DNA from: Deltaproteobacteria bacterium
GTDB taxonomy: Bacteria > Bdellovibrionota > FAC87 > UBA2466
Assembly: GCA_016196825.1 (NCBI GenBank)
Contig: JACPWY010000007.1
Location: 2,468-66,467, forward strand
DNA length: 64,000 nt
Direction of reading: 5' to 3'
Shown: positions 8,556-57,963 of the stretch, piece by piece
Position numbering within the stretch: position 1 is the stretch's first letter
How the letters are laid out: every line of letters begins with the position of its first letter
The notes under the pieces: generated by a model
Database searches by the model: none
What the model was told of the DNA's origin: nothing
The model's input: the letters and a program-made list of their open reading frames with translations, nothing else
Made by a program: the position numbers and the translations under genes

Positions 8556-9653
8556 ATGAAAGGAACGCTGATGAAGCGACTTGTCACGATCCTCTCTCTT
8601 GCCATTATGGCTGGTTTTTTCACTGAGTTAGCCGCGAGAATCGGGGTGACGATTTCACTGGGTTGGAGCGCTGTGTCAACGAAGTTGATGCGCCACCCCG
8701 AGGAACTTTGGTTTTCCTATTATCCGGAATTGCGTCGCATCTTGGCGGCTCCTGGAGAGGCCGCGCCGCGGGTGCTCTTGGTTGGGGCGTCTGTGATCGC
8801 GGGTGGCCGGGGCTATGGCTCAGTGGTTGATCGCCTTCGGGAGGAGGGACGGCGAGCGGGAGTGGAGATTTCCATCGCGAATGCTGGGGTCCCAGCTCAC
8901 ACATCGGTGGATGCGCTGTTCAAATATCGACTGTTGGGGGAGCGGCGTTTTGATCTCGTCATCTGGTCGGAAGGGTTCAATGAAGTGCGGGCGAATAATT
9001 GCCCCGATGGGGATTTTCGGAGCGATTATTCCCACTACAGTTGGTATCGACGATTGCGGGTCCTTGAGCGGCACCCGGAGTTGAAGTTTATAGCCCTGCC
9101 ATATGTGGTGGACAGCCTTGTGGAGGAGGCGCGTCACCTTCTGAGCGGGCACCGGGATCTGCCTCGGCATGCGCCGGTTGCGGAGTATCATCGATATGGG
9201 GAGAAGGTGAAGACGACTCTTTCGCTCGAGAAAAACCTGGAGGCGTTCTTGGGGGTTGCCCGACAGCGCGGGGAGGCGGTCGTGGTGGTGACCCAGCCGT
9301 TTTTTATTCCGCCGGACTATTCGCTGGAGAGGTTTCAAGGGCGGGCACTCGATTACAACAGCCATGTCTTGCCGGTGGAGCTCTGGGGTTCGGTCGAAGG
9401 GGTGCGAGCAGGGGCCGAGGCGCACAACGAAGCGATCCGGCGGGTGGCCGCCCGGGCGCGGGAGCGGGGCCAGGACGTGAAACTGATCGACTTGGCCACT
9501 CTTCTCACGGGGGGCCGAAAGTATTTCAATGATGTCTGCCACCTCACCGACGAGGGATCGCGTGTTTTTGCTCGGCAGATTCTCAATGCATGGGAGCGAG
9601 CGCGCCTTGCACGCGAAAGATCATCTCCCGTTCAAAAAGCCCCTCATTCCTGA
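8556..9653 (+). CDS. SGNH/GDSL-family hydrolase (esterase/acylhydrolase)
   Basis: N-terminal signal/TM segment. A block-I-like LLVGASVI, and a C-terminal DVCHLTDEG that matches the SGNH catalytic DxxH block. The 3' end overlaps the convergent gene by about 70 bp. Confidence 0.6.
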   Translation: MKGTLMKRLVTILSLAIMAGFFTELAARIGVTISLGWSAVSTKLMRHPEELWFSYYPELRRILAAPGEAAPRVLLVGASVIAGGRGYGSVVDRLREEGRRAGVEISIANAGVPAHTSVDALFKYRLLGERRFDLVIWSEGFNEVRANNCPDGDFRSDYSHYSWYRRLRVLERHPELKFIALPYVVDSLVEEARHLLSGHRDLPRHAPVAEYHRYGEKVKTTLSLEKNLEAFLGVARQRGEAVVVVTQPFFIPPDYSLERFQGRALDYNSHVLPVELWGSVEGVRAGAEAHNEAIRRVAARARERGQDVKLIDLATLLTGGRKYFNDVCHLTDEGSRVFARQILNAWERARLARERSSPVQKAPHS

Positions 9654-15756: not shown

Positions 15757-16149
15757 CTCGTCGCCTAAAGAGTTTCATTCAGCGATGACTTGCTGGGAGC
15801 GATGTCTCTCGGCGAAAGGATGTATAGAATTCATTCATCGTAAGGGTGCAGTTTTTCCTCCTTCCTTTTCTTTGGGTTAGGTGTTGATTCGGCAAGTTAG
15901 CGGTTAGTGATCGCCGGTGAATGAATTCCCAATGGACTAAATCCTGAGCGGTAGGGTTGTATGGGATTTGATTGCAAGGCGTCGTGTGAGTTTCCGTCGA
16001 AGACTCTGGGCGTTGTTGGATGGTTTTTGACGTCGAGACTTTGTTTATGAGGCTCTGACTCAAGCCGTTGTTTCATGTTTTTGGGTGTCCGAGCATTTTT
16101 GGGCGTAGGTGTCCGTTGGTGTGGAGATATTTTTGTTTTTCCGAGGTTG

Positions 16150-18199: not shown

Positions 18200-18549
18200 G
18201 ATGCTTTCTCCTTGTTTTTGATTTTGGGATTATTGGTGAACTACTGAAGGACTACAGACTTCAGGATAAATGGAGTTTAGAGCTTCATGAACGCAATTTT
18301 AATTCTGACGTCGATAAGGCATGGGCAATCGCGTTAAGTTCCATGCCGCCAGGCATTTAGTCCATTGGCCAACATTGCCAAAGGCTACCCCCTCACTTTC
18401 ACGGGTTTTTATTCCGAAAACTCCCTATGCGGCGTTTTCTATTCGTTCCGAAAGGCCTGGCCTCAGCGCTCGCACTATTTCTTCTGCTATATCAAGTGTT
18501 TGCCTAGCCTCCCACCTTTGGTCGCGAATTCAATTTCGGCAGCGCGGCT

Positions 18550-28344: not shown

Positions 28345-29358
28345 GTGGCGACGAATAATTGTCACGCATTCGACCTTCTCTCCAATCAGATTTCACGACA
28401 AAAGAAGTATGCCTGGGATCTCGAACGCGACCTTCCTTGGGAGCTGGGCGTCGATCCCGATAAATTTCTTCTTCCGCTGGATGAGAACGCCATCGTCTTT
28501 CCGGGGCTTGACGACGAGCTGCGGCTAGCGCTGTCGCAGTTTGCGGGGCTCTTTGTGAACACCGCGATCTCCGAGATGGAGGGCGTCATCGACAAGTTGC
28601 GTGATTGCGCGTGGCGGGAATGTCTGCGACGCAACCCGGTGAACCCAGAGCTCGAGACCTTGGGAGAGCTCTTTTTCGATGAAGAGCTTAAGCACTCGCG
28701 CCTCTTCAAGCGGTTCAATCTCGCGTTTTGCGATCGGTTGGGAATCGATCCAAAGTATCTCCAGCAGATCCTGCCGCAGACCTTTGGCTCGCGGTTTCTC
28801 GACACGATCATCGACAATGCGAAGGATGGCGGCCACGCCTTTTGGTGGGTGGTGGCCAGCGTGGAAGAGGTTTCGATTGGCGTGTTTCGGCAGATGGCGA
28901 GCGAGAAGGCCGGAATCGATCCTCTCTTTTTCGAAGTCCACCGGCGACATATGGAAGAGGAAATGCGCCACTGCAACTATGCCTTCTTAATCTTGGACCT
29001 GATCCACAAGCGGTCCAAGAATTTGCGGCAGCACTATCACGCGCGCACCGATCTGATTCTGGCTCAGACGAGCTCAAGCACCTGGCTCCTGGGCGAGTTA
29101 CAGAAGATGTGGCGAGTGCAAAAGATGGGGTCGCTGCACCCATTCTTTACGCGCTTGGTGCGGGTGGTTCCGCATTTTAAGCGAATCAGCCCATTGAAAC
29201 TTCCCCACATTTTATATGCGAGCTCCCCGTACCTCAGTCTCTTCCTCAATCTCCGTCGACACCCGCTCACGTTAGCGAAGGCGATCCAGACCGGTACGCC
29301 GCACCTCCCCATGCCGCGCCCCCACGATCTCCCCGTTTTGGCTAAGAGCCTATCCTAA
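28345..29358 (+). CDS. Ferritin-like diiron-carboxylate oxygenase (AurF/desaturase-like)
   Basis: Two E...ExxH pairs: ISEMEGV / DEELKHSRLF and VEEVSIGVF / EEEMRHCNYA. Confidence 0.55.
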   Translation: MATNNCHAFDLLSNQISRQKKYAWDLERDLPWELGVDPDKFLLPLDENAIVFPGLDDELRLALSQFAGLFVNTAISEMEGVIDKLRDCAWRECLRRNPVNPELETLGELFFDEELKHSRLFKRFNLAFCDRLGIDPKYLQQILPQTFGSRFLDTIIDNAKDGGHAFWWVVASVEEVSIGVFRQMASEKAGIDPLFFEVHRRHMEEEMRHCNYAFLILDLIHKRSKNLRQHYHARTDLILAQTSSSTWLLGELQKMWRVQKMGSLHPFFTRLVRVVPHFKRISPLKLPHILYASSPYLSLFLNLRRHPLTLAKAIQTGTPHLPMPRPHDLPVLAKSLS

Positions 29359-29543
29359 AACCCTTTCGTCGGGAGGAGCGAGGCAAAATGTCCTGGACCG
29401 AGGACGCACAAGGGAGGTCCCGCAGGCGTGCCCTCTGGGCACGTCGAGGACACCGACCGCGGAGGACGAAGAGCCAGGGCATTTTGACCGTTCCGAGTAG
29501 AAAGGGTTTTAGGATGGGCTCTGAATAGTGATAGTTTGCCCCC

Positions 29544-32973: not shown

Positions 32974-35166
32974 GTGCAGCAGCCGCCCTCGGAAAATCTT
33001 CAGGGCGCCGTTGAACGCGTTACCTTTCACAGTGAAGAGAGTGGCTATTGCGTTGTGAAGATCCGGGCCAAGGGGCACCGGGAACTCATCACGCTCCTGG
33101 GCCATTTGCCGTCGATTTCGGCGGGGGAGCACATCGAAGCCACCGGCGAGTGGGTGCAACACCCCGAGTATGGATCGCAGTTTCGGGCAGCCACGCTTCG
33201 ATCCATTCCGCCCACCACTCTCGAAGGGATCGAGCGCTATTTGGGATCGGGGCTCATCAAAGGGATTGGGCCTCAGTTTGCCAAGCGGCTCGTCGAGACC
33301 TTTGGCGACGATGTGCTCGATGTGATCGAAAACGATCCGAGGCGATTGAGGAAGGTGCCGGGAATCGGGCCGACGCGAATTGGAAAAATATCTCAGGCGT
33401 GGCGCGAGCAGAAAGTTGTGCGTGACATCATGGTCTTTCTCCAATCGCATGGGGTCTCGACCCTTAAAGCGGCTCGGATCTATAAAACCTATGGCCAAAA
33501 TGCGATCGAGCGGGTGAAGCAGAATCCTTACCACCTGGCTCGGGATGTGAGCGGAATTGGATTTAAGAGCGCCGATCAGATCGCGCGCGATCTCGGTGTG
33601 CCGGACAACTCGATCGTGCGCGCGCGAGCGGGTTTGCAGCACGTTCTTTCCGAACAGATTTCGCACGGTCACTGCGCCTTCCCTGTCGATGAATTAATCC
33701 CTAAGGCGGGGGAGCTACTTCAGATCGACACCGCCACGCTGACTGAGGCGCTTCGTTTAGAGATTGGTGAGGGGGACCTGATCGAAGAACGAATCGATGA
33801 GCGAGTGTGTGTCTTTAATAAAAGACTCCTCTTCCACGAGAAGGGAGTGGCTTTGGAGTTCATGCGAATCGCAGAGGGGGTCTTGCCCTGGGCGGGGCTC
33901 GACACCAAAAAGGCCATTGTGTGGGTGGAGGAGAGCCTTAGGATTTCGCTCGCTGACCTTCAGAGGGAGGCGATCGAAAAGGCACTCAGTTCGAAAGTCT
34001 TGGTGATCACCGGCGGGCCGGGAACGGGTAAAACCACGCTCACCCGGTCGCTTGTGACGATTCTCGCTTCGAAGCGAGTGAGGCTGGCGCTGTGCTCGCC
34101 GACGGGGCGGGCGGCGAAGCGCTTGAGCGAGTGTACGGGGCTCCAGGCGAAGACGATCCATCGGCTCCTCGAGGTGGATGGGGCCAACGGTGGATTCTTG
34201 CGCGATCGGGGAAACTCGCTTGAGGCCGATCTCATTATCGTGGATGAGGCCTCGATGGTGGATGTGACGCTGATGCACTGTCTGCTCCAGGCGATTCCTT
34301 CACAGGCGGCGCTGCTCATCGTGGGGGATGCCGATCAGTTGCCCTCGGTCGGTCCGGGCCGTGTGCTCGGTTCGCTCATCAAGTCGGGCGCTGTGCCGGT
34401 TGTTCGTCTGACGCAGGTGTTTCGTCAGGCTGCCGTGAGCCGTATCATCACCAATGCTCATCGGGTGAATGAAGGAAAGATGCCCGAAGTAACCAATTCG
34501 GATCCCCAGTCCGATTTTTTCTTTCTCGAATCCGAGAACCCCGCCGATATCCTTCGGCTAGTCGTGGATCTGGTGAAGCGCCGATTGCCGCAAAAGTATG
34601 GCTGCGATCCCAAGCGCGATATTCAGGTGCTTTGTCCAATGAATCGCGGGGGGCTCGGGACGCGATCACTGAACACCGAACTTCAGAAGGCGCTCAATCC
34701 CGATCCGAGCGCGAAGGTCGAAAAGTTTGGAATCACATTCGGGGTCGGTGACAAGGTCATGGTGATCCAGAACGACTACGATAAAGATGTTTTCAACGGC
34801 GACATCGGATGGATCACCAAGCTCGACACCGAAGAGCAGATCGCGACGGTTGAGCTCGATGATCGAGCGGTGGAGTTCGCCTTCTCGGAGCTCGATATCC
34901 TGGCGCTCGCCTATTCTATTTCGATCCACAAATCGCAGGGGTCGGAGTATCCGATTGTGGTGATCCCGCTGGCCACCCAGCACGCCGTGATGCTCAAGCG
35001 CAACCTGATCTACACCGGAATGACACGCGGCAAGAAACTCGTCGTCATGGTGGGGCAGCGGAAGGCGTTGGCGATGGCGGTTGATTCGCGGGATCAGGGG
35101 CGCCGTTGGGACAATCTAGCAGCGCGTCTCGTCGCCTCTCCCAGGCCGGTTTCCGATTTCCAATAA
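32974..35166 (+). CDS. recD2: RecD2-type SF1B DNA helicase
   Basis: Walker A GGPGTGKTT. DEAS box IVDEASMVD. GDADQLPSVGPG. C-terminal TIHKSQGSEYP and YTGMTRGKK. Confidence 0.85.
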   Translation: MQQPPSENLQGAVERVTFHSEESGYCVVKIRAKGHRELITLLGHLPSISAGEHIEATGEWVQHPEYGSQFRAATLRSIPPTTLEGIERYLGSGLIKGIGPQFAKRLVETFGDDVLDVIENDPRRLRKVPGIGPTRIGKISQAWREQKVVRDIMVFLQSHGVSTLKAARIYKTYGQNAIERVKQNPYHLARDVSGIGFKSADQIARDLGVPDNSIVRARAGLQHVLSEQISHGHCAFPVDELIPKAGELLQIDTATLTEALRLEIGEGDLIEERIDERVCVFNKRLLFHEKGVALEFMRIAEGVLPWAGLDTKKAIVWVEESLRISLADLQREAIEKALSSKVLVITGGPGTGKTTLTRSLVTILASKRVRLALCSPTGRAAKRLSECTGLQAKTIHRLLEVDGANGGFLRDRGNSLEADLIIVDEASMVDVTLMHCLLQAIPSQAALLIVGDADQLPSVGPGRVLGSLIKSGAVPVVRLTQVFRQAAVSRIITNAHRVNEGKMPEVTNSDPQSDFFFLESENPADILRLVVDLVKRRLPQKYGCDPKRDIQVLCPMNRGGLGTRSLNTELQKALNPDPSAKVEKFGITFGVGDKVMVIQNDYDKDVFNGDIGWITKLDTEEQIATVELDDRAVEFAFSELDILALAYSISIHKSQGSEYPIVVIPLATQHAVMLKRNLIYTGMTRGKKLVVMVGQRKALAMAVDSRDQGRRWDNLAARLVASPRPVSDFQ

Positions 35167-35192
35167 GAGACGCTTCCACTAAAATTGGAACT

Positions 35193-37880
35193 ATGCAAAA
35201 AATCTTGGGGTGGACGTTCGTTTTGGCAAGCAGGTGTCTGTGGGCCGACGCGATGCTACCCGGCGTTGAGTCGTCGGAGATCGGTAGCCTAGTCGCCGGT
35301 TACATTGGCCAGCTCACTCTCCCGGGTAAGGTGGAGCATCACAAGAAAATTGCGGCGCTGGTCGCCAAAAACTCGAAGTATCAAAGAGCCTTGCTTGCGA
35401 CACTCGTGAAGCAGAGCCAGGTGCAGGGCCTGGAGCCACTCAAGAAGTTGTTGCCCGCTCCGCTCGCCGCGCTTGAGAAGGCGTTACCAGCGGCCCCGAA
35501 TGCGAGCCTCTTCGGAGGCGGATTGATCGCGCCCCCCACGGGAACCTGGCTCATGCCAATCCCATTTCTTGAAGACTCTCCGCTTGAGGCGAGTGTCGCG
35601 ACCGGTGTGAAGAGCCATATCCTCTCGCCTGACGAGGTGCTTGAGCTTCAACGCAATCCCGGTTGGCTCTGTCTCCCCGACGGCCAGGCGGTGCGTACGG
35701 ATGCTGTTGTCCGCATGGTCTATCCGCGCAAAAGAGCCGAGCGGGAACGGCTTGAAAAGGGGGATGCCGAGAGCGCGATCAACGATTGGCGCGATCTGCT
35801 CAAATCCGCCGATGCCGGCAGCAATTCCGATGAGCAGCTTAAGATCGGTCTCGACAATTTTTGCCTAAAGCATCCGCTGAGCCCCCAGTGTGACCTGGCG
35901 GAAAAGGCGATTACGCCTCCCGTCGCCAAAGGAAAGGCGCCGATTGAAACGGGCCTCCTCGCCATGGCCGGGTCCGAGAACTCTGAGCAGAGGGACCTCT
36001 ACCAGCGCACGCTTCTCAAGATGGCGAGGCCCGATCTGGACGCCTTTCGAAAAAGGGTTCTTCTCGATCCGTCCGGTGAACACGCCTGCACCGTCATGCA
36101 CCTCTCCGATCCCCACCGGCTTTCGAAAGGTCTGAAGGCAGTCAGTCCGTCGCACGCGATGACGCCGGTTTTGATGAGACTTTTGCCTGAGCTTGCGGCC
36201 AATGGCGACCAGGGGGGCCTCGCGCGTGTGGCTCCGTGGATCAATGATTCGGCGATTCCATCGCTGGTGAAGAGGCTTTCGAGCGCATCGGAGGAGTCAC
36301 GCACCTTTTCCGCCGATATTTTGGGAAACTTCGGTGTGCGTGTCGTGGCGGCCTTGATTGCGGCACTCAATGACTTGGATCCCAATGTGCGACTGGGGGC
36401 CGCCCATGCCCTGGGGAAGATTGGCGAGAAGGCCGAGCCTTCCGTGTTCACACTGACCCGTTTGATCAAGGATCCTGAGAGCAAGATGCGGCAGAATGTG
36501 GCAGAGGCTCTGGGAAAAATCGGAAAGAAGGCGGCCAAGGCAATCCCCGCTCTCACCGAAGCGCTCGCGGATGCCGATGCTGGCGTAAAGGCCAATGCGG
36601 CAGAGGCGATCGGAGCCATCGGAGGAAACGCCCAAGAGCTCGTGCTGCCGCTCACAAAACTTTTAGCCGATTCCACTCCTCTCGTGCGCGCGAGTGCGGC
36701 GGCGGCGCTTGGAAAATTTGGCAACGCGGCCACCTCAGCCGTTCCAGCTTTGGTTCTTTTATTGAAAGATTCCGAAAAATTCGTGAAGCTCAATGCTTCG
36801 GAGGCACTGGGACTGATCGGAGCCGAATCGTCTGTGGCTCTCTTTGATGGGTTAGCGAGTGAAGATGAGACGATGCGTGAGATATTGACGGCCGGTATCG
36901 TGAAGCTAGGCCGAAAGGCGGTGCCGTTACTTATCAAGGAGGTTTCCAATGCGAGTGCGGCCGTCCGTGCCTCGGCGATCGGAGCGTTGGGAAAAATTGG
37001 CGACCAGGCTGCGGCCGAGTCCACGTCAATTGTGGCGGAGGCCATGACAGACGATAGCGGTTTGGTGCGGGCCACGGCGGCCGACACTTTGGGGGCCTTT
37101 GGCCCGAAGGCGTCTATCGCGATTCTGGCCCTGATCAAAGGTCTCGAAGACACCGATGAGAATGTGGCGACGAGCGCCTCGATGGCACTCTCTCAGATGG
37201 GGCCCGAGGCCTATGGCCCCGTGATTGGAGTTTTTTCGCATCCGAAAAAGGAGGTGCGCAAACTTGCTGCGGAATCGTTGGGCACGATGAAGGAGACCGT
37301 GATCCCTGTTTTGGTGGCTGCATTGAACGATCGCAATGAGACTGTGCGAGAATACTCGGCCATGACGCTCGGACTGATGGGTGAGCGTGCGGGTTCTGCC
37401 GTGCCTGCTCTTATGAAGTGTGCGGAAAATGAGGCCAGTTCGGTTCGCCGTTCTTCGGCTGAAGCGCTTGGGAAAATGGGAGGGCGGGCCATTGCGAGCA
37501 TTCCGTCGCTCACGCATCTTCTTCGGGATAAAGCCAAAGAGGTGCGCGAGAGTGCGGCCGCGGGGCTCCACAAGATGGGGCGCTTAGCGACGGGAGCGAT
37601 TCCTGCTTTGACCGAGGCGTTGAGCGATGACAACGATGTGGTCCGGTATTGGGCTTCAAAGGCTCTCCAAAATTTTGGCCCTAAGGCGGCGGACGCCGTG
37701 CCCGCGCTCACCTTGGCGCTCGCCGATGAGACCGAAACGGTCCGTGCCAATGCGGCCAAGGCTCTGGGAACCATAGGGCTCAGGGCCAAAACGGCGATGC
37801 CCCAGCTCGGGAAGGCGCTCGACGACACCGACAAACACGTGCGATCGAACGCTCAGTGGGCGCTGGAGCAGCTGCGCTAG
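35193..37880 (+). CDS. Secreted HEAT/PBS-lyase-repeat protein (over 25 tandem repeats)
   Basis: A signal-peptide-like start MQKILGWTFVLASRCLWA. The C-terminal 550 aa is built of about 31-aa units (...VRxxAAxALGKIGxxAxxAIPALxxxLxD...). The ORF is open from 35106. Confidence 0.7.
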   Translation: MQKILGWTFVLASRCLWADAMLPGVESSEIGSLVAGYIGQLTLPGKVEHHKKIAALVAKNSKYQRALLATLVKQSQVQGLEPLKKLLPAPLAALEKALPAAPNASLFGGGLIAPPTGTWLMPIPFLEDSPLEASVATGVKSHILSPDEVLELQRNPGWLCLPDGQAVRTDAVVRMVYPRKRAERERLEKGDAESAINDWRDLLKSADAGSNSDEQLKIGLDNFCLKHPLSPQCDLAEKAITPPVAKGKAPIETGLLAMAGSENSEQRDLYQRTLLKMARPDLDAFRKRVLLDPSGEHACTVMHLSDPHRLSKGLKAVSPSHAMTPVLMRLLPELAANGDQGGLARVAPWINDSAIPSLVKRLSSASEESRTFSADILGNFGVRVVAALIAALNDLDPNVRLGAAHALGKIGEKAEPSVFTLTRLIKDPESKMRQNVAEALGKIGKKAAKAIPALTEALADADAGVKANAAEAIGAIGGNAQELVLPLTKLLADSTPLVRASAAAALGKFGNAATSAVPALVLLLKDSEKFVKLNASEALGLIGAESSVALFDGLASEDETMREILTAGIVKLGRKAVPLLIKEVSNASAAVRASAIGALGKIGDQAAAESTSIVAEAMTDDSGLVRATAADTLGAFGPKASIAILALIKGLEDTDENVATSASMALSQMGPEAYGPVIGVFSHPKKEVRKLAAESLGTMKETVIPVLVAALNDRNETVREYSAMTLGLMGERAGSAVPALMKCAENEASSVRRSSAEALGKMGGRAIASIPSLTHLLRDKAKEVRESAAAGLHKMGRLATGAIPALTEALSDDNDVVRYWASKALQNFGPKAADAVPALTLALADETETVRANAAKALGTIGLRAKTAMPQLGKALDDTDKHVRSNAQWALEQLR

Positions 37881-38042
37881 TGTCCTGAGTCGTATATTTC
37901 GTTACATATTCGCGAGGGGATTCGCCCGGCATGCGAGGAAGAAAGGCGCCGACGTACTGCCTGTACGTCAAGCCTTTCTGACGAAGCAGGCCGGGATGAA
38001 GCACCCGCGATTTGTAACGAAATATACGACTCAGGACACTAG
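37877..38042. repeat. Perfect 30-bp inverted repeat arms with about 106-bp spacer forming a large potential stem-loop between convergent genes; likely bidirectional terminator or miniature palindromic element
   Basis: The left arm ctagtgtcctgagtcgtatatttcgttaca (37877-37906) is the exact reverse complement of the right arm (38013-38042). The arms include the TAG stops of both flanking genes. The spacer contains an inner imperfect palindrome (gaaaggcgccgacgtac / gtacgtcaagcctttc). Confidence 0.8.
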
Positions 38043-40147
38043 CCCGAGAATTTTCTAAGACGAAGAGAATTGGCGACGACGGAAATTGAGCTCAGGGCCA
38101 TCGCTCCTGCGGCGACCATGGGGTTGAGAAGCCCGAGCGCTGCGACCGGAATCGCCACGACATTGTAGAGGAAAGCCCAGAAGAGGTTCTGCCTAATAAT
38201 CCCCACCGTCCGATCCGAAAGCTCGATGGCTAGCCCGACTCGGGCAATGTCGCCCTTCAGCAGCGCAATCGACGCCGTTTCGAGGGCCACATCGGTGCCC
38301 GACCCCAAGGCAAAGCTGACATCGGCTTGAGCGAGCGCCGGGGCGTCGTTGATCCCATCACCCACCATTCCGATGATCTTGCCGGAGACTTGGAGCTTCT
38401 TGATGAGATCCGCTTTTTCAGAGGGAAGGCAAGGGGCTATCACCTCGTCGATTCCCAGCTCCTGAGCGACGTCGATGGCGGTGATTCGATGGTCGCCGCT
38501 GGCCATCACGGTGTGGATACCCAGGCGGCGGATGTGGTTAAGGGCGACCCAGGCCTTAGGTCGAATGGTGTCGGCGATTCCAAAGAGAGCGGTCAAGCGT
38601 CCGCTGACTGCCAAAAAGACCACCGTCTTTCCCTGGGCGCGATAGCGGTTGACCCGATCCTTGAGCTCGGGTTCGAGATTCGAGACTTCAGTGAAGCTTT
38701 CGTTCCCCATTCTCACCATCTGACCGGAAATCGTCCCCTGCACGCCGAGTCCCGGTGTTACTTGAAAATCGCTGAGGATCATTTCATGAGCGTCGTGGGC
38801 GCGGCAGTATTGCTTGATGGCCCGAGCGAGCGGATGCTCCGAGGCCGATTCCAACGTGAGCGCGAAGGAGAGTGACTCCTCCGCTCCTTCTTTCACCCAG
38901 GCGTCAGTGATTTCAGCCGTGCCTTGCGTGAGGGTGCCCGTCTTGTCGAATACGAGAACATCGATCTTCTGGGCGAGCTCAAGGCTTTCAGCATTGCGGA
39001 TCACTATCCCCAGTTCGGCGGCACGCCCGGTGCCAACTAGGATCGCTGTGGGGGTGGCCAGTCCAAGGGCGCAAGGGCAGGCAATCACTAGAACCGCCAC
39101 GGCTGAGAGGATCGCCTTCTCCCAGCCCTGTCCCCCTGACACCCAAAGCGCGAGTGTGGCAAAGGAAACAACGAGAACGGCCGGAACAAAGCGCCGGCTC
39201 ACCGAATCGGCGAGCCGCTGAATAGGCGCTTTCGAGGACTGGGCCGACTCGACGAGACGGATAATCTTCTGGAGGACCGTGTCCGCGCCAACCTTTTCCG
39301 CCCGCATTGCGAGGCGACCGTCGACATTGAGTGTGGCTGCCCATACGCTGTCGCCGGGTACCTTCGTCACGGGGAGACTCTCCCCGGTCAGCATCGATTC
39401 ATTGACTGAACTGCGGCCCGAGGTGATCACGCCATCGACAGGGATCGCCTCGCCGGGCCGGATCACGACGGTGTCGCCCGAGCTGATCGCGGAGGCAGCA
39501 ATCTCGATCTCTTGCCCGTCTTTTAAGATCGTGCTGCGAGCGGGAGCCAGAGAGAGAAGGCTCTTGATGGCAGCGGCGGCACGCCCCTTGGCTCGGTCCT
39601 CGAGGCAGCGCCCCAGAAGAATGAGCGTAATGATGACGGCCGCTCCCTCGAAATAGAGTTGGTGCAGCCCAGTGATGAGAGAGTAAACGCTGAAAGCGAA
39701 AGCGGCCGACGTGCCAAGCGCCACCAGAGTGTCCATGTTGGCGGAGAGGTGGCGCGCGAGTCGATGGGCGGTGGCGTAGAAATCGCGGCCGGCCCAGAGG
39801 ACTGGCAACGTGAGAAAGAGTTGGAGCCATTCGATCCACCAGGAATTATTCATCGACATGGATAGGATGAAAACGGGGGTGGTGAAACCTAGAGCGACCC
39901 AGAATCTTCGCCAGAGGGTTTTCGATTCGATGTCTGAACGGTCGGTGAAAGAGGGGTGGTATCCGAGTTCTTCGACGGCGCGGAAAACCTGGTGAGTCGA
40001 GACACTCCCGAGGACGGCCGCTCGACGCGTCGCGAGGTTCACGGTGGCGCTCTGGACACCGGGGATCGTCTTCAGGCGATTCTCAATTTTCTGAGCGCAG
40101 GAGGCGCAGTGCATGCCCTCCACATTGAATGAGAGTTCCGTCGACAC
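38039..40147 (-). CDS. copA: Copper-translocating P1B-type ATPase
   Basis: HMA domain [41 protein letters not shown]. Confidence 0.9.
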
Positions 40148-57825: not shown

Positions 57826-57899
57826 GGGCGGTTAGCTCAGCTGGATAGAGCACGTGGCTTCGAACCACGGGGCCAGGGGTTCGAATCCCTTACCGCCCA
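57826..57899 (+). tRNA. tRNA-Arg (anticodon TCG)
   Basis: Manual cloverleaf:
- Acceptor GGGCGGT/ACCGCCC.
- U8.
- D-arm GCTC-AGCTGGATA-GAGC.
- Anticodon stem CGTGG/CCACG with loop CTTCGAA.
- 5-nt variable loop.
- T-arm AGGGG-TTCGAAT-CCCTT.
- Discriminator A, no encoded CCA. Confidence 0.85.
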
Positions 57900-57912
57900 C
57901 ACCCAAATTTAT

Positions 57913-57959
57913 GTATACATCAACACCATTTTTACGGTAAAATTGGTGTTGATGTATAC
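57913..57959. repeat. Perfect 16-bp inverted repeat (hairpin) immediately 3' of the tRNA
   Basis: gtatacatcaacacca ...15 nt palindromic spacer... tggtgttgatgtatac. Possible tRNA terminator or att-like site. Confidence 0.7.
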
Positions 57960-57963
57960 ACGT

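Follow-up and report, generated by a model that had tools for sequence, protein, structure and literature searches.

Duplication of a TA target dinucleotide is regarded as a hallmark of the IS630 family of insertion sequences (PMC2170065). For one member of this family, ISY100, cut-and-paste transposition into TA with duplication of the TA has been demonstrated in vitro (PMC2170065). IS630 itself prefers TA within the sequence 5′-CTAG-3′ (Tenzen & Ohtsubo 1991, as cited in PMC2170065 and PMC6811581). Here we describe a hairpin-forming element at positions 37877-38042 of a 64,000-nucleotide stretch of DNA (the window) from a Deltaproteobacteria bacterium of the Bdellovibrionota (assembly GCA_016196825.1, contig JACPWY010000007.1). 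The element separates the 3′ ends of two convergent genes, which encode a HEAT-repeat protein and a copA-like ATPase. It is very probably a 160-bp non-autonomous MITE (miniature inverted-repeat transposable element) of the IS630 (IS630/Tc1/mariner) family, inserted in the TA of a CTAG that held the stop codons of both genes. A preliminary description, made from the sequence alone, had offered a miniature inverted-repeat element as one of two explanations of the hairpin. The element's termini, its TA/CTAG flanks, a second copy in another genome (locus L001) and the existence of full-length IS630-type parents support this explanation. The element and its target site comprise the following features:

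37877, target base C, the 5′ base of the presumed original CTAG
37878-37879, left copy of the duplicated target TA
37880-38039, MITE body of 160 bp, GTGTCC...GGACAC, non-coding and self-complementary throughout, with boundaries identical to those of the L001 copy
37880-37909, plus strand, left terminal inverted repeat (TIR), the first 14 nt of which, GTGTCCTGAGTCGT, are the conserved terminus of the IS630 group
37940-37979, central inner hairpin at the apex of the foldback, AGAAAGGC...GACGTAC-tgcct-GTACGTC...GCCTTTCT, from sequence and folds
38010-38039, minus strand, right TIR, which in frame with the terminal TAG reads as a peptide resembling the C-termini of parent-group transposases
38040-38041, right copy of the duplicated target TA
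38042, target base G, the 3′ base of the presumed original CTAG

The parent of the element was sought by permissive BLAST against plasmids. One weak match (H4, E=6) covers precisely the terminal 35 nt and is located at an annotated IS630-family transposase on a plasmid of Alicyclobacillus dauci. The insertion sequence (IS) on this plasmid is 1,139 bp long and has the ends tCTAG-TGTCCTGAGTCGT... and ...GACTCAAGACA-CTAGt, so that its terminus and CTAG flank are the same as those of the window element. The other plasmid matches (H1-H3 and H5-H8) were weak, fell in the internal part of the element and are regarded as chance matches. A phage BLAST with the element found nothing. The shared terminus, represented by the 16-mer TAGTGTCCTGAGTCGT, was used for a family scan in which the base before the TA was left unconstrained by the pattern. 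At least 120 metagenome stretches and two viral contigs were matched. Counted over metagenomes, viral contigs and one plasmid, no fewer than 130 termini share the sequence TA followed by GTGTCCTGAGTCGT. Among the matches listed, to which the counts for the group given below also refer, about 33 are complete IS copies of 1,125-1,174 bp, whose open reading frames (ORFs) in most cases comprise 359-372 aa, and another 12 or so are short non-coding derivatives with lengths of 81-332 bp. The sampled transposases match the NCBIfam model NF033545 "IS630 family transposase" with 278 bits (cutoff 100) and carry Pfam DDE_3 and HTH domains. The window element has the same terminus as the ends of the approximately 33 complete copies. 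Its small size and a longest internal ORF of only 18 aa are those of a non-coding IS630-family MITE.

The flanks of the group point to the same family. C precedes the TA in 130 of the 141 termini (92%), and nearly all complete elements are flanked as c-TA...TA-g, which matches the published CTAG preference and TA duplication of IS630. The same c-TA...TA-g flanks, with the TA duplicated, are present in the window and at L001. Both of these copies are bordered by CTAG on each side, and this could equally be read as a 4-bp duplication. The element might then belong to a family that duplicates all four bases of CTAG (IS5- or IS701-type) and not to the TA-duplicating IS630 type; CTAG-duplicating MITEs derived from IS5, such as MITEPsy1, do exist (PMC3189936). 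We consider this assignment very improbable. Dozens of full-length elements with the same terminus encode IS630-family transposases, and the base before the TA is other than C in 11 of the 141 termini, while one element (L075) ends in ...CACTA-t; these deviations fit duplication of TA with a preference for CTAG. The TIR is unrelated to the IS5-type GGAAGGT... (PMC3189936), and an IS5- or IS701-type combination of TIRs and parent transposase was not found.

The relation to the IS630 group extends beyond the terminus. The arms of the window element align with the right-end (IRR) termini of IS copies over approximately 30-40 nt. When the arms are read in the frame of the terminal TAG, each of them encodes a peptide similar to the transposase C-termini ...FCQRTYDSGH (L123) and ...VCKRINDSGH (L006). 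The encoded peptide mirrors these C-termini, and the arms therefore appear to be what is left of the 3′ end (IRR) of such an IS. The short elements L012, L014, L030, L031, L053, L070, L075, L077, L089, L092, L113 and L117 share termini of 16-17 nt with the window element, and their interiors differ. They were rejected as copies of the window MITE. Since only the termini are shared, several MITE lineages must have arisen independently from this IS630 subgroup. Uncultured bacteria of soil and groundwater are the source of the parent subgroup, for which no named IS was matched here. It is a widespread, apparently undescribed IS630 subgroup of environmental bacteria with several independent MITE offshoots.

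Two further observations concern the group as a whole. In 31 of the 33 complete copies (including L008, L016, L079 and L123; among L008-L127), the transposase ORF reaches the last base of the element. These 31 transposases end in ...N/Y-D-S-G-H. The duplicated target TA and the flanking G of the CTAG together form their stop codon, so that nothing but the target closes the transposase frame. An IMG/VR viral contig (L007, 1808-1823) likewise contains the shared IS630-type terminus, TAGTGTCCTGAGTCGTTTTTTGTAACG, here with a gTAG flank. No partner end or transposase is recognisable near this terminus, which may be a solo end or belong to a truncated element.

A second copy of the element was found when a 22-mer from the arm was scanned against 185,579 species-representative genomes, one per species. 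The only other locus detected is L001, in a metagenome-assembled genome (MAG) of the Pseudobdellovibrionaceae. The whole element is present there at positions 1580-1745 in the opposite orientation, with 156 of 164 positions identical (95%), and the similarity begins and stops exactly at CTAG on each side. The L001 copy is located between two divergently oriented ORFs, and thus between gene starts; one of the ORFs encodes a family-2 glycosyltransferase. The L001 host and the window organism are related but not the same: the copA of the former, which lies elsewhere in the MAG on a different contig, shares 68% identity with that of the window, and the GC content of L001 is 51% compared with 56% for the window. 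An element of 164 bp with 95% identity and precise shared boundaries in two contexts is the signature of a transposable element, and two unrelated genomic sites are so far known. The 95% identity of the MITE compared with the 68% identity of the hosts' copA hints at recent horizontal spread. The preliminary description had named the absence of other copies, together with RNA-seq showing simple termination, as the outcome that would reduce the element to a strong bidirectional terminator. L001 is such a copy, even though the arm pair occurs only once in the window itself.

The inverted repeat was verified at the level of coordinates, folding and assembly. The arms are exact reverse complements of 30 nt each (37877-37906 and 38013-38042) with a spacer of 106 nt, and the left arm reads CTAGTGTCCTGAGTCGTATATTTCGTTACA. 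The inner palindrome GACGTAC-tgcct-GTACGTC is found at 37951-37969 as part of the hairpin, so that the arms and the second palindrome stand as they had been described. A repeat finder extends the arm pair to 34 nt at 97% (37876-37909 and 38010-38043) and gives it as the longest inverted repeat within 3 kb across the whole window. A 26-mer of the arm, searched with up to three mismatches, has two sites only in the window and was matched in 0 of 100 shuffles. The whole 166 nt folds into one near-complete hairpin with -116.4 kcal/mol (z = -15.7) on the plus strand and with -111.3 kcal/mol (z = -13.4) on the minus strand, and this bears out the earlier expectation of a hairpin of about 165 nt. None of 200 shuffles reaches the stability of the native hairpin on either strand. 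Of 82 possible pairs 66 are formed, the interior being largely self-complementary too.

Two further assemblies of this organism, L128 and L002, show the sequence of the element as well. Over 9.3 kb L128 (GCA_016178225.1) matches the window with 100% identity, and it contains the complete element. The Logan contig L002 (SRR12113416, k=31) ends 28 nt into the arm (L002 8073-8100). An inverted repeat longer than k=31 suffices to break a de Bruijn assembly, and for this reason the contig break was rejected as proof of multi-copy status. For annotation pipelines this means that inverted repeats of at least 31 bp can break k=31 assemblies at such junctions. The assemblies confirm that the inverted repeat is real and not an assembly artefact. 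L128 differs from the window in two places outside the element. Between its positions 9277 and 9278, 195 bp corresponding to window positions 36470-36664 are missing inside the HEAT-repeat gene, which gives a product of 830 aa instead of 924 aa; the most likely cause is that HEAT repeats of nearly identical sequence were collapsed in one assembly. The last approximately 84 nt of L128 do not align beyond window position 38277, which suggests a chimeric contig end.

The extreme folding z-scores and the single copy in the window would also be expected of a vertically inherited structured RNA gene, of a protein-binding palindrome with a chance likeness to transposon ends, or of a foldback chimera produced during assembly. 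We give these origins hardly any credence. Three independent assemblies of the organism and one other genome contain the element, and at least 130 IS630-type ends agree with it in all 16 nt of the terminus, TA included, which is beyond chance. In Rfam 15 the sole match to the element is Metazoa_SRP, with 16.8 bits against a threshold of 70 bits. This identity was rejected as spurious, being a sub-threshold match typical of any long hairpin. A scan of the whole window at the Rfam gathering thresholds returned only tRNA-Arg.

The other explanation offered in the preliminary description, a structured bidirectional terminator or RNA, found no support. An intrinsic terminator consists of a short GC-rich stem-loop followed by a U/T-tract, and this arrangement was not found. 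There is no U-tract 3′ of the outer stem, where the sequence reads CCCGAGAATTTTCT on the plus strand and CGCAGCTGCTCC on the minus strand. A terminator scan recognised in the element a weak inner site on the minus strand only; overall the scan found 4 sites compared with 2.0 ± 1.7 expected, which is chance level. Both strands fold equally well, as expected of an inverted repeat at the DNA level. No promoter-like site was found in the window element. The comparison with L001, which lies at gene starts, is also informative. Of the eight differences between the two copies, five break a pair, two keep a pair through G-T and one is at an unpaired position. No two-sided compensatory change is present between the two available copies, and structure-conserving evolution was therefore rejected. 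The L001 copy folds 24 kcal/mol less stably than the window copy.

A functional role could nevertheless have been added to the transposon origin, the hairpin being used or co-opted as a bidirectional terminator, an insulator or a stabiliser of mRNA 3′ ends. A very stable hairpin on both strands is placed exactly at both 3′ ends, and the two genes would have had no intergenic space before the insertion. On the minus strand, the weak terminator-like inner hairpin is followed by CGCCTTTCTT. Elsewhere in bacteria, MITEs that are transcribed have been found to act as substrates of RNase III or to change the levels of transcripts (PMC10969869). We regard such a role as unlikely, since neither strand has a U-tract after the outer stem, the sole sister copy is located between gene starts and not ends, and the sister hairpin is less stable without any compensatory changes. 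Furthermore, the position of the element is fully explained by target preference and tolerance of the insertion.

The position of the MITE becomes clear from the two genes that flank it:

35106-37880, plus strand, HEAT-repeat protein gene of 924 codons; its TAG stop at 37878-37880 consists of the duplicated TA and the first base of the element
38039-40147, minus strand, copA-like heavy-metal P-type ATPase gene with an HMA domain; its TAG stop is the complement of 38039-38041

In a public assembly the copA-like gene is called as 691 aa, which corresponds to 38039..40114. Deletion of 37880-38041 in silico leaves ...CTGCGCTAGCCCGAG..., with both ORFs keeping the same stops. The junction obtained by removing the element and one TA reads ...CTGCG-CTAG-CCCGAG... 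(frame CTG CGC TAG CCC GAG). At this reconstructed junction the HEAT gene stops on TAG, and the copA-like gene, reading ...TTC TCG GGC TAG on the opposite strand, stops on the same CTAG. Before the insertion the two genes would thus have overlapped convergently by 4 nt at the CTAG. This pre-insertion arrangement is one that we infer, and it follows deterministically from the mechanism of the family. The C-terminus of the window copA, ...RLRKFSG, ends where its homologs end (...RLRRFR and ...RLRRFHTNL), which fits a protein that has been neither truncated nor extended.

We propose that an IS630-type DDE transposase, supplied in trans, binds and cleaves the element at its ends. Cut-and-paste insertion would have occurred into the TA of the CTAG and would have duplicated this TA. 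The target is likely to have been the 4-nt overlap that ended both genes, since both strands of CTAG contain a TAG. Both TAGs would have been regenerated by the duplicated TA together with the terminal G or C of the element, leaving the proteins unaltered. We infer that the insertion took place at this locus, with mobilisation in trans, and that it was neutral. The regeneration of both stops follows from the palindromic nature of CTAG, the duplication of TA and the fact that the element begins with G and ends with C, and the insertion would be tolerated because neither protein is changed. The preliminary description had placed both TAG stops within the arms and had stressed the perfect symmetry of the element with respect to both genes. 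Both stops do lie in the flanking CTAG, but these first four bases of each arm are counted as outside the element proper; the CTAG at the start of the arm comprises the target base, the duplicated TA and the first base of the element. The symmetry is likewise real, and it results from TA duplication in a palindromic CTAG that already held both stops, not from the design of a terminator. As a by-product, both mRNAs would carry a hairpin of approximately 164 nt in their 3′ ends. By analogy with other MITEs, it could affect 3′-end stability or RNase III processing of both mRNAs. The locus provides a clean case in which TA-in-CTAG specificity lets a transposon split overlapping convergent genes with neither protein altered. 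A striking structure is in this way explained as routine mobile DNA, which avoids its annotation as a terminator or an RNA gene.

Landing on stop codons is not confined to the window. The window contains 57 CTAG sites, 0.24 of the mononucleotide expectation, and 10 of its 28 TAG-terminated long open frames end in CTAG. For the elements of the group, an exploratory comparison was made with open frames as a proxy for genes and with small numbers. An upstream open frame of 150 codons or more ends on the junction TAG at 33 of 115 termini, compared with 110 of 811 other CTAG sites (OR 2.6, p = 9e-5). Frames of at least 140 codons are closed on both sides in 5 of 28 elements, compared with 13 of 446 other CTAG sites (OR 7.2, p = 0.0025). 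Pfam identifies real genes at several element junctions. In L077 (2735-2898), an unrelated MITE of the group with a length of 164 bp is located between a bPH-domain gene and a convergent full-length metK gene, encoding S-adenosylmethionine synthetase, and both genes stop on junction TAGs. Further group elements that sit exactly on stop codons are those in L014, L117, L044 and L079. The simplest reading of the stop-codon arrangement is that of a repeated outcome of target preference and survival of harmless insertions. Beyond such survivorship, the subgroup and its MITEs might use CTAG-embedded TAG stops as "safe landing pads" in an evolved strategy, which we think doubtful. If this were true, the approximately 2.6-fold enrichment at stops and the approximately 7-fold enrichment at shared stops would reflect that strategy, with the terminal G/C and the duplicated TA rebuilding the TAG for genes that enter from either side. 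A possible benefit for the host would be a spacer or hairpin between formerly overlapping convergent genes.

Several observations weigh against the assignment of the element as an IS630-family MITE inserted in a shared stop. Only L001 shares its internal sequence among the species-representative genomes scanned. A 22/23-mer of the arm gave 0 exact matches in the JGI metagenomes, and this MITE lineage is therefore rare; it took the shorter terminus common to the group to bring up the family there. The 64-kb window contains a single copy. Once the first 14 nt are passed, even the best-matching IRRs show no more than approximately 75% identity over 32 nt, and no close parent was recovered. A tblastn search with the group transposases found nothing in the window or in L001-L004. 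No empty, uninserted HEAT-copA junction was found: the copA homologs at 62-68% identity have other neighbours in loci that are not syntenic, the search through the HEAT ortholog led only to the same organism, and the other assemblies of the junction belong to this organism and carry the element. The exploratory character of the stop-codon statistics has to be added to these points.

Three other repeats were noticed in the window. A second long hairpin is found at 29345-29522, with arms of 23 nt (AGAGCCTATCCTAAAACCCTTTC), one mismatch and a spacer of 132 nt; the segment of approximately 180 nt folds at -103 kcal/mol. The TAA stop of a plus-strand ORF (28345..29358, 337 aa) lies inside its left arm. 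This hairpin has neither TA/CTAG flanks nor an IS630 terminus, no other copy was found in the window, and neither plasmids nor viral contigs gave an informative match. A MITE from a different family is one possibility. A palindrome at 57912-57960 has arms of 24 bp and a loop of 1 nt (TGTATACATCAACACCATTTTTAC g GTAAAATTGGTGTTGATGTATACA) and is AT-rich in a window of 56% GC. It is located 12 nt downstream of the tRNA-Arg(TCG) gene at 57826-57900 and may represent a terminator, or else a feature like an integration site or an operator. The third is a pair of inverted repeats at 15929-15956 and 18341-18368 (CCAATGGACTAAATCCTGAGCGGTAGGG...), which are 28 nt long with 79% complementarity and lie 2,384 nt apart, an IS-like spacing.

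Comparison with described systems places the window element closest to the IS630 family. With bidirectional intrinsic terminators it shares a GC-containing hairpin between convergent 3′ ends that is symmetric on both strands. The stems of such terminators are typically 5-15 bp long with a U-tract on each strand, whereas the window stem has approximately 66 pairs, no adjacent U-tracts, transposon termini and a target-site duplication. The IS5-derived MITEPsy1 also inserts at CTAG (PMC3189936), but it has IS5-type TIRs, a 4-nt duplication and a parent of the IS5 family, in contrast to the IS630-type termini and parents of the window element. The Correia/NEMIS elements of Neisseria are TA-flanked MITEs with TIRs of approximately 26 bp that form long hairpins in transcripts (PMC2229807, PMC10969869). 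RNase III cleaves these hairpins in mRNAs, and this provides the best precedent for any effect that the window element may have in the 3′ untranslated regions (PMC2229807, PMC10969869). There is no sequence relation between the two, and the Correia elements have IHF sites, promoter elements and no identified parent IS, whereas the parent IS family of the window element has been identified. RUP of pneumococcus is likewise a short non-coding MITE that inserts at TA, and its TIRs match those of IS630-Spn1 (PMC2229807). A genome carries approximately 108 copies of RUP, which is 107 bp long and has no sequence relation to the window element; the latter has 160 bp, is wholly self-complementary and is known, with its internal sequence, from two copies in two organisms. 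Unlike IS630 of Shigella sonnei and the other members of the IS630/Tc1/mariner family including ISY100, the window element has no transposase gene and would have to be mobilised in trans, but like them it is characterised by a terminus shared with full-length elements encoding DDE transposases and by insertion into TA, which is duplicated, with a strong preference for TA in CTAG.

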